Positions 1,391 through 7,779 of a DNA stretch of 28,737 bases are shown piece by piece. Source of the stretch: Candidatus Limnocylindria bacterium (GTDB lineage: Bacteria; Chloroflexota; Limnocylindria; QHBO01). A program made the translations under genes and the position numbers. The notes beneath the pieces were generated by a model that worked only from the letters and a program-made list of their open reading frames with translations, ran no database searches and had not been told where the DNA came from. The stretch lies in assembly GCA_035697465.1 (NCBI GenBank), contig DASSCW010000189.1, forward strand, positions 1 to 28,737, in the 5' to 3' direction. The stretch's first letter is position 1. Each line of letters opens with the position of its first letter.

Positions 1391-2332
1391 ATGGACGGAG
1401 GCGAGGGCGGGGTGCCGCAGCCAACGCTTGGCAGCTGCGCCGGATACGAGGTCCGCTCGTCGAACGTAGGATTCCGCACGCTCAGGTCGGGTGGCGGCGA
1501 GCCGATGCTGGTCCATGGCGGCGACGATCCGCAGATCGGCGGGGAGGTAGTCGCCACCTGGCGCCCGCGTCCGGGCAACCCATTCCATGGCCGCCTCCTG
1601 CAGGATGGGGGCATCTTCCACTTCTGGGCAAGCGACGTCGGCTGGTACACCATCGATGCGCAGCACCGCACGATCACCATCTCGGGGGACGTCGACATGC
1701 TGCAGACGGAGCTGCGGCTCTTCGGGATCCCCGCCGCAATCTGCGCTTTCGAGTCTGGCGATGCGCCGCTCCACGCCTCGGCAATCGAAATCGACGGGCA
1801 GGCGATCATCCTGGCCGGCCCGAGCAGGCAGGGGAAAACGACGCTGGCGGCGGCCTTCGCCGCGCACGGGCATCGCCTGCTGTCCGAGGACACGACCCGC
1901 TGCGTCCCTGGCCGGGTCCCATCGGCTTTCCCAGGGCCAGCCGTCGTGCGACTGCGCTCCGACGTTGCCGGCTTGCTCGACATTCCGACGGCCACGGCAC
2001 TGCCGACGAGCTTCGAGGACGGACGGACGGCGTTCCTGTTCGACGATGCTTCGCGTGGCTCGGGTGCCGCTCTGCCCTTGCGCGCGATCCTTATGCTGCG
2101 GCCCGGCGAGGGTCCGCCGACCTTGCGGTCAGTGGACTCGGCGCGGGCGGCGCGGGATCTCTTCTCGCTGGCGTTCCGGTTGCCGACCGACGCGTCCCGC
2201 GCGGCGTGTTTCGCCCGCGTGGTGGACCTCGCCGGTCGCGTCGAGGTCATGGACCTGCATCGACCCATCACCATCGATTCGCTGCCGAGCGTCATTTCGC
2301 TCGTCGAGCGGCATCTGGAGGGCGGGGCCTAG
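1391..2332 (+). CDS. HPr-kinase-like P-loop kinase (PadeK-type lasso peptide kinase candidate)
   Basis: LHASAIEIDGQAIILAGPSRQGKTTLAAAFAAHGHRLLSED: His, Walker A and an acidic pair as in HPrK-like kinases. GAGGA RBS before ATG1391. Lies inside a lasso cluster. Confidence 0.82.
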   Translation: MDGGEGGVPQPTLGSCAGYEVRSSNVGFRTLRSGGGEPMLVHGGDDPQIGGEVVATWRPRPGNPFHGRLLQDGGIFHFWASDVGWYTIDAQHRTITISGDVDMLQTELRLFGIPAAICAFESGDAPLHASAIEIDGQAIILAGPSRQGKTTLAAAFAAHGHRLLSEDTTRCVPGRVPSAFPGPAVVRLRSDVAGLLDIPTATALPTSFEDGRTAFLFDDASRGSGAALPLRAILMLRPGEGPPTLRSVDSARAARDLFSLAFRLPTDASRAACFARVVDLAGRVEVMDLHRPITIDSLPSVISLVERHLEGGA

Positions 2333-3649
2333 GTGCCCGAGATCGCCTCGGTGATCGCCACTCTCGCCGACATTGGCGTCGAGCCGCTTGTCCTGAGCGG
2401 CCAGCGTCCGGAAGACGCCGAATCGGCTAAGCAGGAACGTGGGATCCAGCTTTTGATCCGCCGGGCCGATGTGCGTGCCGCGACGGCTGTGCTGGAGCCG
2501 CAGCCATGGCGCTACTCGTGGATTCGGCGGGGGCTGATGCGACTGGTGCCGATGGTGGACTACTGGTGGGACGGCGGCGCCTTTATCGAAGCGTACTGGG
2601 GGCTCCCCGCCGCCCCACTGCCGCCGATCGCGCTGGCACGGCTGGCGACCGCGCTGTGGAGCCGCGCCGAGAAGGACCCCGTCGGCTACTGGCGGCCGGA
2701 TGTGGCGAGCCTGGCCGTTCACTACGCCGTGCAGGCCTGTCGGCCCGGTCGCGGGCACGATGCCGATTGGCGCCACTTCGTCAACCTCAGGTCGCAGCTT
2801 GCCGACCTGTCCGCGGCGAGCGCCATCGCTCGCCAGGCCGGAGTGGCATCCGCATTTCGGCGGGCAGTGGCTGCGGCCGATGCCGGCTCGGGGCCGCCGC
2901 CGCGGGGACCAGTCTTCGACGGCCCGCTGGGAATCGCGTGGTGGTGTACGACGGCGGTGCAGGCACGCCTCCGTCCTCGGCGGCTGGCACGCATCCTCGC
3001 CGGCGTGCCCTCGCTCGGCGACGCGCCGATTCGCTGCCGGGTGGCGGGCACCGAGGTCGTCGCGGACACCGGGGTCTTCGTGCCTACCCCGGACGCCGAG
3101 ATCTTCGTGGACATGGTCCGCAAGCGCGTCGCTGGATTGCCGCGACCGAGGATTGTCGAGGTCGGCACCGGCTGTGGGGCGATTGCCCTGGCCATTGCCA
3201 ATGCCAGGCGCGACGGGGTGGTCCATGCCGCCGAGATCGACGTCGGCGCGGTCCGCTGCGCGCAACGGAACGCGGAGCGGCTCGGGCTGCACGACGTCGT
3301 CGTTTCGCGCGGGTCGCTGCTCGAACCGGTCTCGAGCGAGCTGGTCGGAGGCGTGGACGTCGTGATCGCGAACCTGCCCTTCTATCCGGCGCGCAATTTC
3401 GCATCGATCGGATCCGTTCCGCGCGACACCATCCAGGGGCCAGGGGACGACGGTCTCGACCTCGTTCGGCAGCTGGCAGCCGACGCCCGACGGTACCTGC
3501 GTCCGGATGGATGGCTGATCCTGCAGATGTTCGCGTGGCAGGTCGAGCTGTTGACCGATGAGCTGAAGCGAATGGGTTACGTGCCGGGCAATCCGCGGTT
3601 GTCTGGGCCATTCGCAATCTGGCCGATGGACTATCGCCCGGGTGCCTGA
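2333..3649 (+). CDS. Fusion protein 1: degenerate nucleotidyltransferase-like N-terminal domain plus HemK/PrmC-like SAM-dependent methyltransferase
   Basis: C-half has VFVPTPDAE, IVEVGTGCGAIALA (motif I), AAEID (motif II) and IANLPFYP (NPPY-like). N-half has GVEPLVLSG, GIQLLI, IEAYWGLP and SLAVHYAVQ, echoing the NTP_transf_5 pattern. Starts immediately after the kinase stop. Confidence 0.78.
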   Translation: MPEIASVIATLADIGVEPLVLSGQRPEDAESAKQERGIQLLIRRADVRAATAVLEPQPWRYSWIRRGLMRLVPMVDYWWDGGAFIEAYWGLPAAPLPPIALARLATALWSRAEKDPVGYWRPDVASLAVHYAVQACRPGRGHDADWRHFVNLRSQLADLSAASAIARQAGVASAFRRAVAAADAGSGPPPRGPVFDGPLGIAWWCTTAVQARLRPRRLARILAGVPSLGDAPIRCRVAGTEVVADTGVFVPTPDAEIFVDMVRKRVAGLPRPRIVEVGTGCGAIALAIANARRDGVVHAAEIDVGAVRCAQRNAERLGLHDVVVSRGSLLEPVSSELVGGVDVVIANLPFYPARNFASIGSVPRDTIQGPGDDGLDLVRQLAADARRYLRPDGWLILQMFAWQVELLTDELKRMGYVPGNPRLSGPFAIWPMDYRPGA

Positions 3650-3678: not shown

Positions 3679-4125
3679 GTGCCAATCGACATGAGGCACT
3701 ATTCGGCCGTGCTCACGCGATCCGACGACGGCCTCTCACTGCTCGCCAAGCTCAGCCTGCTCTGGCGCGTCTGGGCTGTCGCCGCACGGGTGCGGCTTGA
3801 GCTGTGGCGCCATCCGCTGCCTGAGGTCGTCTCTGTCCTCGCCGCGCCAACCGGTCGCCCGCGTGTCCCCACCTCGCTGCTCAGCCGGGCAGTGTCGCGC
3901 GGACTGCGGATCGGTCCGCTCCAACCGCGCTGCCTCACGCGCAGCCTGGTCCTCTATCGCCTGCTGCGCGCGCAGGGCGACGATGCGCAGCTGATCATCG
4001 GCATGCGCGACAAGACGGTCTCCACCGACGCGCACGCGTGGGTCGAGCTGGCCGGCCGCGACGTCGGACCGCTACCGGGTGGGAAAGGCTACCGCGAGCT
4101 GAGCCGGTATCCACGCAGCCTTTGA
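3679..4125 (+). CDS. Lasso peptide B2 protein (transglutaminase-like leader peptidase)
   Basis: CLTRSLVLYRLLRAQG...IIG...AHAWVE (catalytic Cys and His, Transglut_core3-like). Start GTG3679 or ATG3691. Confidence 0.88.
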   Translation: MPIDMRHYSAVLTRSDDGLSLLAKLSLLWRVWAVAARVRLELWRHPLPEVVSVLAAPTGRPRVPTSLLSRAVSRGLRIGPLQPRCLTRSLVLYRLLRAQGDDAQLIIGMRDKTVSTDAHAWVELAGRDVGPLPGGKGYRELSRYPRSL

Positions 4126-5450
4126 CTGAAGATTCGGCGGACTCGTCCTCGTCCGACGTCACCTCACTCATTCGCGTCCTGCGCGACGTCGGCGTTGACG
4201 CCCTGGTCCTGCGGTCCGGCGCCATCAACGACGCCGGCGTATTTCGCCCGCTCCAGCTCCTCGTACCGGAATCCGGGCGAAGAGACGCCGTCGCAGCACT
4301 GGATCGCATGGCCTGGCGCTACGCGTGGGTACGCACGGGACTGCTGCGGCTCACGCCCGGAGCCGTCTACGCCTGGGATGGGGGACGCGTCGTCGAGCTG
4401 TACTGGAGCCTGCCCGCCGCGCCGTTACCGGCATCGGCCCTGGCCCGCCTGACCGCTGCGCTCCGCCGGAGCGCACGGCGAGGGCCGGATGGCTACCTGC
4501 TGGCGGATCCGTCCGCCTTGTTGGTGCACCTCGCCGTCCAGTCGTGCCGGCCCGGCCGCGCGCGCGCGGGCGATTGGGCAGACTTCTTGAGTGCGGCCGC
4601 GACCAGTGAGGACAAGCACCAGGTACGCAAGCTCGCGCGAGGGGCGGGCGTGCGGCCGGCGCTCGATCGCGCCCTGGCTGCGGCGGCTGCCGGGCGTCAG
4701 CGGCCCGGGCCGGGCCGTACCTACGGCGCGGGCTGGGACGTCGCGCGCCTTGTCGCAAATGCGATGCAGGCGCTGGCGCCACGCTCGGTCGCCCGCCAAC
4801 TGGCGGGCTCGCCGATCTTCGGCGACAGCCCCATCCGTTGCAGAATCGGCGGAGTCGAGGTCGTCGCCGATCCGGGCGTCTTCGTGCCGGCGCCATCAGG
4901 GGAGCTGTTCCTCGACGAGGCCCTCGCCGCGTTGGGCAGCATCAGCGAGCCACTGGTGGTCGAGGCAGGAACCGGTTGCGGCGCCATGGCCCTGGCAGTC
5001 GCCAAGGCACGGCCCGATGCCACCCTGCACGCCACCGAGCTGTCGCGCGCGGCGGTGCGTTCGGCGCGCCGCAACGCGTCACGGCTCGGCGAGCTCCGGG
5101 TGAAGTTCTATGAAGGGTCACTATTGACGCCACTGCCGAGCTCGCTCGGTGGGCGGGTGGACCTCCTCATGGCCAACCTCCCCTATGTGCCCGAGGGGGA
5201 GGGCTTCACCCTTGGGGCGTTGCCGCCTTCGACCCTGACCGGCGTGGAAGAGGACGGGCTCGGCCTCCAGCGCCAACTCGCCCGATCGGCGATCGGCGTC
5301 ATCCGGCCGGGTGGCAGGCTTCAGCTCCAGATGCTGGCCTGGCAATGGTCACGCCTCTCGCCGGAGCTCGCGGCCCTCGGCTATCGACCCCTGGCCCCAC
5401 GGCTCTCCGATGCTTTCGCCATCTGCCAGGCAGAGCTGATCGCGGGCTGA
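4122..5450 (+). CDS. Fusion protein 2: paralog of 2333-3649 (degenerate nucleotidyltransferase-like domain plus HemK-like methyltransferase), about 442 aa
   Basis: VFVPAPSGE, VVEAGTGCGAMALA, ATELS, MANLPYVP; N-half GVDALVLRSG, PLQLLV, VELYWSLP, LLVHLAVQ. Colinear with fusion 1. TTG4122 overlaps the B2 stop (TTGA) and aligns with the paralog start; the track gives 4038. Confidence 0.78.
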   Translation: MTEDSADSSSSDVTSLIRVLRDVGVDALVLRSGAINDAGVFRPLQLLVPESGRRDAVAALDRMAWRYAWVRTGLLRLTPGAVYAWDGGRVVELYWSLPAAPLPASALARLTAALRRSARRGPDGYLLADPSALLVHLAVQSCRPGRARAGDWADFLSAAATSEDKHQVRKLARGAGVRPALDRALAAAAAGRQRPGPGRTYGAGWDVARLVANAMQALAPRSVARQLAGSPIFGDSPIRCRIGGVEVVADPGVFVPAPSGELFLDEALAALGSISEPLVVEAGTGCGAMALAVAKARPDATLHATELSRAAVRSARRNASRLGELRVKFYEGSLLTPLPSSLGGRVDLLMANLPYVPEGEGFTLGALPPSTLTGVEEDGLGLQRQLARSAIGVIRPGGRLQLQMLAWQWSRLSPELAALGYRPLAPRLSDAFAICQAELIAG

Positions 5451-5470: not shown

Positions 5471-5764
5471 TCAGGCGGCGACGTGAATCAGATCGCGCTG
5501 CACCGCGCTCTCCACGAAGCGCCGCACGTCGGCCTCGAGTTCCGGTGGGCCATCGGCTATGAGCGCGCGCACAGCAGCCACGAGGTCTTCCAGGGTCCGA
5601 TCCTTATCCAGCAGGACCCAGATCGCGAATCCCAGCTGGTTGAGCTTGTGATACGCACCCGTGTCGAGATGGAGGAGCACCCCGCCGCCGGCGTCGGACA
5701 GCTCACGCGCGACGACCTGGGGATTGCGTGTCAGGGTCGATTCAGGTTCCACCGTCGGCTCCAT
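5471..5764 (-). CDS. PqqD-family RiPP recognition element (lasso B1)
   Basis: RNPQVVAREL...GVLLHLDTGAYHKLNQLGFAIWVLLD...TLEDLV...DVRRFVESAVQRDLI is a typical PqqD/RRE pattern. ATG5764 overlaps the cyclase stop (TGATG); alternative GTG5770. Confidence 0.9.
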   Translation of the reverse strand: MEPTVEPESTLTRNPQVVARELSDAGGGVLLHLDTGAYHKLNQLGFAIWVLLDKDRTLEDLVAAVRALIADGPPELEADVRRFVESAVQRDLIHVAA

Positions 5765-7557
5765 CACCACTGTGCCAGGAAGGCCTGGGCCACCGCCAGG
5801 TTACGTGCCCATCGGTAATCCAGGGTCGTGAAACGCTCCGACTCGAGCAGCGTCGCAAGGCGCCCGTAGTCGACGCCACCCAGGCGATGCTTCGGCGCGC
5901 CCAGCAGGCGACGGAGGGCAGCGTAGTCGACCTCGGCCATGTGGGCTTCGTCGAAGACAGTCTTATCCCGGCGGTCCAGGATCTCGTCCGGAACGCGGCC
6001 TCGGAGCAGGTCGCGCACCAGACCCTTTGGCCGGAGGTCCGGGAACTTCTGCTCGGCGGGGATCGAGAGGAAGAATTCCCACAGGTCCACGTCCGTCCAG
6101 GGCTTTCGCGATACCACGCCCGACACGTCCTGGCAGACCTCCTCCGCCTCGAGCGAGATTCCGGGACCGATGAAGCCCACCAGTTGGGATCGTCGCCACC
6201 GGTCGCGGACGCGGGGGACGTCGGTGTCCGCCGCCCGCCGGCGGTCGATCCAGTCGGGAACCACCGCCGGCCTGGTCCGAGCTCCGATCGAATTGCGGGC
6301 CGCCATCACCCGATGGGGCATGAGTGAGCGGATCACGAGGCGGGTCAGCGCCCACCACGTCCAACCCCGCGTGCGGCGCTCCGCCAGCTCGCGCCTGGCC
6401 GGAGACCATCGGCCGCGCAGCAGGTAATGCTCAAGGGTGTACCACTGCATTGCGGCGACGAATTCCGCGTGCTCACCGGTGAGCACCCGCCGCGCGCCGA
6501 GATTGCGCGCGTGGACATAGCTCTCCTCGTACTGCGCCAACGCCGCTCCGGGCCACGGCGTGTCGGCGAGGCCCACCCACCGCTCGATGTCGTCGAGCGC
6601 GTTGGCGGACAGCTCATAGGTGTGCAGAGGTATCGAGAAGGCCCTGGCCAGGATCTCCACGTATCGGCTCTCGTCGACAGACGGGTACCGCGGATAGACG
6701 GCCGAGATCGCCTGCAACTCACGTCCCGCCATCGCCCGGTGTCGGGGCGCCGCGAACGCCGCGATCGCCGGGGAGTCGATGCCACCGCTGAGGGAGATGG
6801 CGTCGCGACCGGTCAGGACGCGACTGACCGCCTGATCCATGAGCCGGGTAAAGTGCTCGGCGATCTCCGCCTGCCGATAAGTGGCAGATTCCAGCAGCGC
6901 CTCCGGCTGCCAGTAACGTGACAGCGTGGTCGCGCCCTCCTCGGAACGGACGGTCGTCGACTTCGGCAGGCGGCGGACGCCCACCAGCGACGCCGGCATC
7001 TCGTCGTCGACGTCTCGGTAGAAGATGCGCTCCACGACGTCCAGGTCCGGCTGCCGCGGGAGGGATGCCCCCGCGACTACCTGCTTTGCCTCGCTGGCCG
7101 CCATGAATCCGCTGGCGTCCTCGCGGAAGAACAGTGGGCGGTAGCCGATGTGATCGCGGAAGCACAAGACGGAACGCCCGTCGCTGATGCCTGCAGCGAA
7201 GACACCCCGCATGCGGGCCGGCAGCTCCGCGCCGAAGCGGTGGAATCCCGCCGCCAGGAGCTTGGCGATATCGATGGAGCCGCCGGCCGCTGCGTGCCCT
7301 GAGCCGTCCGGCCATAGATCGCGCGCGAGATCGACCGCGTTGTCGAGGGAGCCTGTGAAGGCGACCGCAAGACCATCGTGGACACCGACCCAGGCATCTG
7401 GCTCCGCGTGGTTCCCCGTCCTCGCCGCCATGGCGCAGCGTCCGAGGACGAGCGTCTGCACCTCCGTGCCGCGGTGCGGAGCGGCATCGATCATCCGCGT
7501 CGCGACGACACCGGGGTCATCATGGAGCGCTGACAGGAAGACTGCGATTGCGCCCAC
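5764..7557 (-). CDS. Lasso peptide cyclase (asparagine synthetase-like isopeptide-forming C protein), 597 aa
   Basis: MRGVFA..., RDHIGYRPLF, ATP-binding SLSGGIDSPAIA, SRKPWTD. The N-terminus MGAIA lacks the AsnB Cys nucleophile (MCGI). Flanked by the precursor and the RRE. Confidence 0.9.
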   Translation of the reverse strand: MGAIAVFLSALHDDPGVVATRMIDAAPHRGTEVQTLVLGRCAMAARTGNHAEPDAWVGVHDGLAVAFTGSLDNAVDLARDLWPDGSGHAAAGGSIDIAKLLAAGFHRFGAELPARMRGVFAAGISDGRSVLCFRDHIGYRPLFFREDASGFMAASEAKQVVAGASLPRQPDLDVVERIFYRDVDDEMPASLVGVRRLPKSTTVRSEEGATTLSRYWQPEALLESATYRQAEIAEHFTRLMDQAVSRVLTGRDAISLSGGIDSPAIAAFAAPRHRAMAGRELQAISAVYPRYPSVDESRYVEILARAFSIPLHTYELSANALDDIERWVGLADTPWPGAALAQYEESYVHARNLGARRVLTGEHAEFVAAMQWYTLEHYLLRGRWSPARRELAERRTRGWTWWALTRLVIRSLMPHRVMAARNSIGARTRPAVVPDWIDRRRAADTDVPRVRDRWRRSQLVGFIGPGISLEAEEVCQDVSGVVSRKPWTDVDLWEFFLSIPAEQKFPDLRPKGLVRDLLRGRVPDEILDRRDKTVFDEAHMAEVDYAALRRLLGAPKHRLGGVDYGRLATLLESERFTTLDYRWARNLAVAQAFLAQW

Positions 7558-7585: not shown

Positions 7586-7613
7586 AATGACCGGGCCCGA
7601 AGGCCCGGTCATT
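7586..7613 (-). terminator. 12-bp perfect hairpin with UUCG tetraloop between precursor and cyclase (attenuator or stabiliser)
   Basis: - strand AATGACCGGGCC-TTCG-GGCCCGGTCATT, 19 nt after the precursor stop; only a short U-run follows. Confidence 0.75.
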
Positions 7614-7632: not shown

Positions 7633-7779
7633 TCAGCTCGCGAACGGGTGCGAGAACTCCCCGTACTTGTCGGTTTCCATCACGATTTCAGACTTGTCGC
7701 CCTTGCCGGGATTGTCGAACGTGTGATCGGCGATGGACCCCAAGTCCTCGATCTCCGGCGCCTGGTAGATGATCTGCAT
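7633..7779 (-). CDS. Lasso peptide precursor, 48 aa: leader MQIIYQAPEIEDLGSIADHTF, predicted core DNPGKGDKSEIVMETDKYGEFSHPFAS
   Basis: Translated by hand (below the ORF-track cutoff). AAGGGGAG RBS 6 nt upstream; YxxP leader motif; Gly then Thr at -2; Asp7/Glu10 acceptor candidates; C-terminal Ser. Sits directly upstream of the cyclase. Confidence 0.88.
   Translation of the reverse strand: MQIIYQAPEIEDLGSIADHTFDNPGKGDKSEIVMETDKYGEFSHPFAS

Follow-up and report, generated by a model that had tools for sequence, protein, structure and literature searches.

Gene cluster around the precursor

The stretch of DNA analysed here (called the window) is 28,737 nucleotides long and comes from a Candidatus Limnocylindria bacterium of the Chloroflexota. 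On its minus strand lies a short gene, called P0001, for a lasso-type precursor peptide, together with the following genes and features.

1391–2332, plus strand: HprK-like kinase (TIGR04352, 6.9e-10; PF07475, 0.0016; both below the curated cut-offs)
2333–3649, plus strand: HemK-type methyltransferase fusion
3679–4125, plus strand: B2 leader peptidase (NF033537 lasso_biosyn_B2, 54.8 bits against a cut-off of 33; PF13471)
4038–5450, plus strand: second HemK-type methyltransferase fusion
5471–5770, minus strand: B1, a PqqD-type RRE (PF05402, 2.6e-15)
5764–7557, minus strand: lasso cyclase (C), Asn-synthase-like (PF00733, 3.7e-26; NF033535 lass_lactam_cya, 3.9e-37, below its cut-off)
7587–7612, minus strand: hairpin between the precursor stop codon and the start of the cyclase gene
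7633–7779, minus strand: lasso-type precursor gene P0001, 48 codons plus stop, recognised from its homologues and its GC3

The cyclase and the PqqD-type RRE are encoded 3' of the precursor on the same strand, while the kinase, the methyltransferase fusions, B2 and an ABC exporter, which also belongs to the cluster, converge on the plus strand. The combination that marks the lasso class, that is, an Asn-synthase-like cyclase, an RRE (B1) and a transglutaminase-like B2, adjoins the precursor, and the same set is found in at least 30 related loci. The HprK-like kinase is in turn a feature of the paeninodin type, and its orthologues, with 35–52% identity, are present in nearly every related locus. 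Judged by its gene content, the locus is a complete split-B lasso cluster that is kinase-associated and paeninodin-like.

The HemK-type methyltransferase fusions were seen only in the clusters of the DNPG/QTPG subfamily (the window, L007, L008, L011 and L013–L015), and other relatives carry stand-alone NTP_transf_5 genes and glycosyltransferases in their place.

The hairpin has a perfect 11-bp stem, which a G–U pair can extend to 12, and a 4-nt loop of sequence UUCG. It is GC-rich, and the 83 nt around it fold at −41.2 kcal/mol, corresponding to z = −3.8 relative to shuffled sequences. Probably, it either terminates transcription in part or stabilises the RNA, and would thereby tune the ratio of precursor to enzymes.

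The precursor gene and the predicted cleavage site

A purine-rich ribosome-binding site, AAGGGGAG, is located ca 7 nt 5' of the ATG of P0001, and the GC3 of the gene is 88%, compared to 68% GC for the window. A homology search yielded 60 close homologues (59–88% identity) and a profile search another 152, more distant relatives; many of these sequences are related to each other, such that the counts given below overstate their independence. P0001 is the only ORF in the window that carries the leader motif. The homologues and the neighbouring cyclase and PqqD genes imply that the ORF is not a chance frame. As had been claimed from the sequence at the outset, we thus have a lasso-type precursor, a view that is borne out by the leader register, by the adjacent cyclase, B1 and B2 genes and by the homologues. 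Read against the whole cluster, P0001 is a genuine precursor of a kinase-associated, paeninodin-like lasso-type RiPP.

The precursor is divided as follows.

7717–7779, minus strand: leader M1–F21, with the pattern Y5-x-x-P8-x-I10-x3-G14-x5-T20-F21, assigned from conservation and the YxxPxL register
7636–7716, minus strand: predicted core D22–S48 (core residues 1–27), from translation; 7633–7716 when the stop codon at 7633–7635 is included

The YxxPxL motif spans positions −17 to −12 of lasso leaders, and this rule fixes the boundary between leader and core (PMC10368454). With D22 as the first core residue, Y5 is at −17, P8 at −14, I10 at −12 and T20 at −2. This is as expected for lasso leaders, which are characterised by YxxPx(L/I/V) in the register −17 to −12 and by a Thr, or more rarely an Ile or Val, at −2. 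P8, G14 and T20 are the same in all 60 close homologues, and Y5, D12, S15, I16, H19 and F21 in at least 90% of them. The leader is almost identical also across the 152 distant relatives. The lasso_leader_L3 model (NF033521) matches residues 5–18 with 14.2 bits (E = 0.035), which does not reach its curated cut-off of 19 bits. On the strength of the register and of the near-invariant leader residues, we accept the position after F21 as the B2 site. This assignment, which agrees with the original prediction based on the Thr(−2) rule, is well supported, and B2 would thus most likely leave Asp at core position 1.

Translation of 7636–7716 on the minus strand confirms the predicted core of 27 residues, in which Asp1, Asp7, Lys8, Ser9, Glu10 and the last residue, Ser27, can be read, and in which positions 8 and 9 hold no acidic residue. 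The xxPG start that had been pointed out is a conserved feature, with P3 and G4 invariant in the 60 close homologues. At the C-terminus, endings with Ser or Ser-Pro are common, with a Ser as the last or penultimate residue in 57 of the 60 close homologues, and the very last residue is Ser in the window, in 30 of the 60 close and in 72 of the 145 distant homologues; the Ser that is strictly conserved is an internal one, Ser22. Asp1, which had been taken as an atypical start, loses much of its oddity, as variability among the first four core residues of this family is highest at residue 1 and a lasso peptide with Glu1 has been published (PMC13632552).

Canonical starts at Gly4 or Gly6 were considered and rejected. 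They would need Glu10 or Glu14 as acceptors, of which the former is not conserved, while the position of the latter is occupied by Glu, His, Ala or Val in the relatives. In two distant precursors, P0074 and P0089, a Pro follows directly after the predicted HTF cut; Pro at position 1 was absent from a large-scale survey of lasso precursors (PMC13632552).

Conserved residues of the core

The positions of the core that are relevant for the ring closure and for the phosphorylation are the following.

7696–7698, minus strand: codon of core Asp7, the acceptor proposed first; Asp in 56 of 60 close homologues
7687–7689, minus strand: codon of core Glu10, the acceptor proposed second; Glu in 2 of 60 close homologues
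7645–7695, minus strand: conserved module, core K8 to P24 (K-x7-D-K-Y-G-E-F-S-H-P), delimited by conservation
7669–7671, minus strand: codon of core Asp16, here the proposed true acceptor, an acidic residue invariant across the family
7651–7653, minus strand: codon of core Ser22, candidate phosphorylation site, the invariant Ser of E-x-S

The core residues that are invariant in the 60 close homologues are P3, G4, K8, D16, E20, S22, H23 and P24. Thus, when the question is which acidic position is invariant, the answer is D16 and E20, and not the two residues, D7 and E10, on which ring closure had been predicted. Position 7 is Thr in the close homologues that lack Asp. Position 10 is acidic in 13 of the 60 and is mostly Ala or Ser. 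Among the 145 distant cores, 43 (ca 30%) have an acidic residue at positions 7–9, which is about the chance level, and in 23 the Asp of the module is not preceded by any acidic residue.

The module, on the other hand, can be followed through the whole family. K8, D16, E20 and S22 (K29, D37, E41 and S43 of the precursor) are each present in at least 90% of 119 diverse precursors, and the family form of the module can be written as K-x7/8-D-K-[FY]-G-E-x-S. The pattern D-x-[FWY]-x-E-x-S occurs in 167 of 205 cores, of which 140 have a Lys 8 or 9 residues before the Asp and 157 have Ser at the position of Ser22. In 105 of the 107 distant module cores a Lys is found 6–11 residues before the Asp. Offsets of 8 (36 cores), 9 (44) and 10 (18) account for 98 of the 107, and the standard deviation of the offset is 0.92, whereas the same Asp lies anywhere between 14 and 55 residues from the HTF cut, with a standard deviation of 7.3. 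The module Asp therefore keeps its register relative to the Lys rather than to the N-terminus. A literature search with the leader and module sequence strings returned no relevant match.

The Cys residues provide information about the fate of the segment before Lys8. An even number of Cys is found in 105 of the 109 module cores that contain Cys, and when there is one Cys before the Lys, the number in the module is odd in 41 of 42 cases (Fisher p = 3e-25, a value in which independence is overstated since the sequences are related). This parity indicates that the N-terminal part is disulfide-bonded to the module and thereby retained in the product, at least in the Cys-bearing subfamilies. Furthermore, no second protease is conserved across the 39 loci described below, in which the shared neighbourhood consists of C, B1, B2, the kinase, the ABC exporter, NTP_transf_5 and glycosyltransferases.

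The cores of the xRC type (such as P0137, L040, L041, L043 and L044) have one Cys fixed at position 3 and the other between the Glu and the Ser of the module, a placement that suggests a disulfide tying the N-terminus to the tail.

Related loci and the cyclase tree

A genome scan with the leader-anchored alignment gave 39 loci, all in metagenome-assembled genomes (MAGs), from Gaiellaceae, Solirubrobacteraceae, Conexibacteraceae, Acidimicrobiia, Chloroflexota, Gemmatimonadota and one member of the Steroidobacteraceae. According to tblastn searches with the proteins of the window, the cyclase, B1, B2, kinase and ABC genes are present in nearly all of them.

Several of these loci bear directly on the role of position 7. 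Forms with Thr7 are found in the intact clusters L002 and L013–L017, and also in L004, which stems from a genome of the window's own family and is a short locus in which the cyclase is cut by the locus end. In L009 the residue is Asn. Altogether, at least seven species-level genomes or contigs (L002, L004, L009, L013, L015, L016 and L017) have Thr or Asn in place of D7. The only acidic residues of the L009 core are D1, D16 and E20, which makes D16 the first one after Asp1. In L028, L029, L035, L036 and P0093, the module Asp is even the first acidic residue of the core, and the next one is the Glu four residues later; the adjoining cyclases are 46–48% identical to that of the window (48% for P0093). 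The clusters of L009, L028, L029, L035 and L036 are intact, with C, B1, B2 and kinase.

In a maximum-likelihood tree of 26 cyclases, those of the window and of L007, both belonging to D7 forms, nest with those of L016, L013 and L015 (T7) and of L009 (N7), with a support of 100/99. The SGGxD PP-loop, which binds ATP, is invariant in all 26. Position 7 is thus Asp, Thr or Asn inside one well-supported cyclase clade, which is not the pattern of a xanthomonin-type ring. Among the positions of natural lasso peptides, the acceptor varies least, and substitutions are not tolerated there (bioRxiv 10.1101/2020.11.25.399105). The intact clusters that lack D7, the cyclase tree and this rule of acceptor invariance together argue that D7 is not the acceptor of the family and that D16 is, with E20 as a less likely candidate. 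Neither of the rings originally predicted, Asp1–Asp7 and Asp1–Glu10, is upheld as a conserved feature. D7 must nevertheless have some function, because it is conserved in 93% of the close subfamily. The possibility that Asp11 stands in as the acceptor in the T7 forms was rejected, as this residue is missing from P0068, P0071 and L009. When the cyclase was modelled in complex with ATP, Mg and the HTF-plus-core peptide, the score was 0.01, and the result was counted neither way.

One locus, L037, contains two tandem short precursors (positions 597–860 of the locus, plus strand) that have the same leader and cores of 16–17 residues starting with G-x-P-G. Their only Asp is at position 8, the Lys–Asp module is missing, and they adjoin C, B1, B2 and kinase genes. 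By its sequence, L037 is a canonical member within the same cyclase clade, fitting an eight-residue ring from the α-amine of G1 to D8. The cyclases of the family can therefore work in the textbook way, starting from the HTF cut.

Two other loci, L034 (5340–9576) and L042 (10010–12050), have the same leader, B1, B2 and kinase, and no cyclase within 5–10 kb. Their cores are without the module, and that of L042 is very basic and has no acidic residue. The products are probably linear phosphorylated peptides, which would be made with a B2-type peptidase. In addition, the cyclase matches in L008, L010, L011, L012, L014 and L039 are in two pieces, which in L008, L010 and L039 lie in different frames; the core of L039 has no Lys. 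These split matches may be long-read indel errors or real frameshifts.

The cluster closest to that of the window is L007, from a MAG of the Steroidobacteraceae, a gammaproteobacterial group, with a precursor that is 83% and a cyclase that is 62% identical, and the next closest are from Chloroflexota MAGs (L013–L016). Among 401 sampled genomes of the phylum, only 2 have the precursor, and the sole further carrier in this sample is G160, a genome of the window's own family in which the T7 form resembles those of the Chloroflexota. This patchy distribution suggests horizontal transfer.

Proposed maturation

In the maturation that we propose, B1 would bind the YxxPxI leader and B2 would cut after F21, whereby Asp would become the first core residue. 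The cyclase would then adenylate Asp16 and close the macrolactam there, rather than on Asp7 or Glu10, and the octapeptide DNPGKGDK that precedes the rest of the module would remain in the product. We consider this, a ring on Asp16 with residues 1–8 retained, to be an evenly balanced proposition on the basis of the comparisons above.

The favoured amine partner would be the ε-amine of Lys8, owing to the fixed Lys–Asp register, the variation of residue 1 and of the length of the N-terminal part, and the lack of a second protease. With its 32 atoms, the ring would equal a 10-residue ring closed on Glu, and it would carry a short N-terminal extension. We put this forward tentatively, as a possibility that is rather less likely than not: a side-chain-to-side-chain macrolactam from Lys8 to Asp16, through which the phosphorylatable tail may thread, with the N-terminal octapeptide free. 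The alternative partner for Asp16 would be the α-amine of Asp1, which gives a 16-residue ring. This option is textbook chemistry and is consistent with L037, but it leaves the Lys unexplained. The kinase, finally, would phosphorylate the invariant Ser22 or the C-terminal Ser, the two likely targets.

It should be pointed out that there are observations that speak against a ring on Asp16, namely the high conservation of D7 in the close subfamily, the canonical cores of L037 and the fact that the Lys–Asp offset is not strictly fixed but ranges from 6 to 11. Also, we know of no lasso cyclase that uses a Lys side chain as the nucleophile. A literature search for such a cyclase, and for data on an E7D variant of xanthomonin, gave nothing usable. 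The characterised natural lasso rings all have 7–9 residues (bioRxiv 10.1101/2020.11.25.399105).

Alternative ring closures

The α-amine of Asp1 could instead be joined to Asp7, in a seven-residue, 22-atom ring followed by a loop and tail of 20 residues, with K8–D16 as a variable loop and with Y18, F21 and H23 as plugs. We judge this to be unlikely, although it accounts for a number of observations. Besides the presence of D7 in 56 of the 60 close homologues, residues 1–8 are the best-conserved part of the core, and the sequence of a conserved N-terminal part, a variable and indel-bearing stretch at 10–14 and a conserved stretch at 15–24 resembles the arrangement of ring, loop and plug. L037 and P0123 show G1-x-P-G-x3-D8 cores behind the same leader, and D7 is found also in subgroups with an unusual Lys–Asp offset (6, 7 or 11). 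However, the Thr7 and Asn7 forms described above have cyclases that nest with that of the window, and P0068 and L009 offer no other acceptor before D16/17. The 22-atom ring would, moreover, be one atom smaller than a seven-residue ring closed on Glu, which to our knowledge is the smallest lasso ring characterised. A 10-residue ring from Asp1 to Glu10 is chemically feasible, and Glu10 is indeed there in the sequence of the window; an unnatural variant of fusilassin with a 10-mer ring has been reported (bioRxiv 10.1101/2020.11.25.399105). However, Glu is found at this position in only two of the 60 close homologues, for which reason we set this ring aside as hardly credible, and L007, the nearest neighbour in the cyclase tree, has Ser there.

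Asp16 could also be the acceptor in an ordinary lasso peptide if a second cut after Lys8 freed the α-amine of Ser9. The ring would then have eight residues (nine in the insertion forms), the product would be an ordinary lasso peptide of 19–20 residues and DNPGKGDK would be a spacer. The most frequent offsets, 8–9, coincide with canonical ring sizes, and the Lys is followed by a small or polar residue (Ser, Gly, Asp, Asn or Ala). A Cys recurs three residues before the Asp and another just after the invariant Ser, which suggests a disulfide between ring and tail, similar to that of class III lasso peptides. It has also been found that the PsmC cyclase acts on a free core without B1 or B2 (PMC6993621). 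This scenario is nonetheless quite improbable in our view. It would need a second protease, and none is conserved in the 39 loci, while the register of the leader points to F21 as the residue after which B2 cuts. The Cys parity (41 of 42) bonds the part before the Lys to the module, which means that this part is not discarded. In addition, P0138 has Pro after the Lys, and the offsets of 6, 10 and 11 would lead to rings of 6, 10 and 11 residues. Other outcomes that can be envisaged are that Glu20 is the acceptor, that two isopeptide bonds are formed, or that the product is an unthreaded lariat or a linear phosphorylated peptide. E20 is conserved as well as D16, the related cassettes L034 and L042 lack the cyclase and have cores without the module, and linear polyphosphorylated peptides associated with HprK-like kinases and RREs are known (PMC13381572). 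In the window, however, the cyclase is intact and has the invariant PP-loop, the conservation of E20, two residues before the invariant Ser, can be explained by a recognition motif for the kinase, and the spacing of the Lys is tied to the Asp. Taken together, we give these outcomes only a slim chance.

Comparison with known systems

The closest parallels are paeninodin from Paenibacillus dendritiformis and pseudomycoidin from Bacillus pseudomycoides, with which the window shares the split B1/B2, the Asn-synthase-like cyclase, the HprK-like kinase and the ABC exporter. Further common traits are the NTP_transf_5 gene, here found in the related loci, the YxxPx(L/I) leader with Thr at −2, and the frequent C-terminal Ser. 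[quoted passage not shown] The rings are where the two differ from the window: they extend from Ala1 to an Asp within positions 7–9, whereas the conserved acidic residue of the window is at position 16, with an invariant Lys eight residues before it. The hosts are also different, Bacillota in the case of paeninodin and pseudomycoidin and uncultured Actinomycetota, Chloroflexota and Gemmatimonadota for the family of the window, whose subfamily, in addition, has the two HemK-type fusions.

The lasso precursor BsfA from Bradymonas sediminis likewise has YxxPxL at −17 to −12 and a HprK-type kinase (PMC10368454). In this case an internal residue, Ser3, is phosphorylated (PMC10368454), and the kinase target need therefore not be C-terminal. 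BsfA differs from the window in having Ile at −2, where the window has Thr, and a canonical Gly1–Asp8 ring, where the window has no conserved acceptor at positions 7–9.

The xanthomonins are the only characterised class known to have a seven-residue ring, which is the size that was first proposed for the window. The xanthomonin ring is closed between Gly1 and Glu7 and has 23 atoms. A ring from Asp1 to Asp7 would have 22, and the family of the window does not keep an acidic residue at position 7 throughout. Palassoptide A2 provides a precedent for an acidic residue 1, Glu1, in a proven lasso peptide, comparable to Asp1 of the window (PMC13632552), and its cyclase PalC accepts every residue at position 1 except Pro (PMC13632552). 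Unlike the window, palassoptide A2 has a canonical Glu1–Glu8 ring and no Lys–Asp module.

The linear polyphosphorylated peptides (LPPs) of Bacillota (PMC13381572), finally, combine a lasso-like leader motif with an RRE, a HprK-like kinase and an NTP transferase, and in this they resemble L034 and L042. Their clusters have a signal-peptidase-like leader peptidase and no cyclase, in contrast to the window, which has B2 and an intact cyclase.

Implications

According to the rule used in textbooks and in genome mining, a lasso ring extends from core residue 1 to one of residues 7–9, counted from the Thr(−2) cut. The family described here departs from this rule while having the complete machinery. 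As far as the sequences tell, what sets it apart from the known systems is the combination of no conserved acceptor at positions 7–9 with an invariant Lys–Asp pair; the gene set and the leader are of an already known type.

If the ring is indeed closed on Asp16, the cyclases would either make much larger rings than those characterised or use a Lys side chain as the nucleophile. In either case, the range of known lasso chemistry and topology would be extended, and the core prediction for the family would have to change. If instead the Asp1–Asp7 ring were true, it would be the smallest lasso ring known. The family has so far been found only in metagenome-assembled genomes. A ring between Lys8 and Asp16 would, if true, represent both a new lasso topology and a new cyclase nucleophile, and it would be common to at least 200 sequence clusters (representatives at 50% identity), mostly from Actinomycetota and Chloroflexota.
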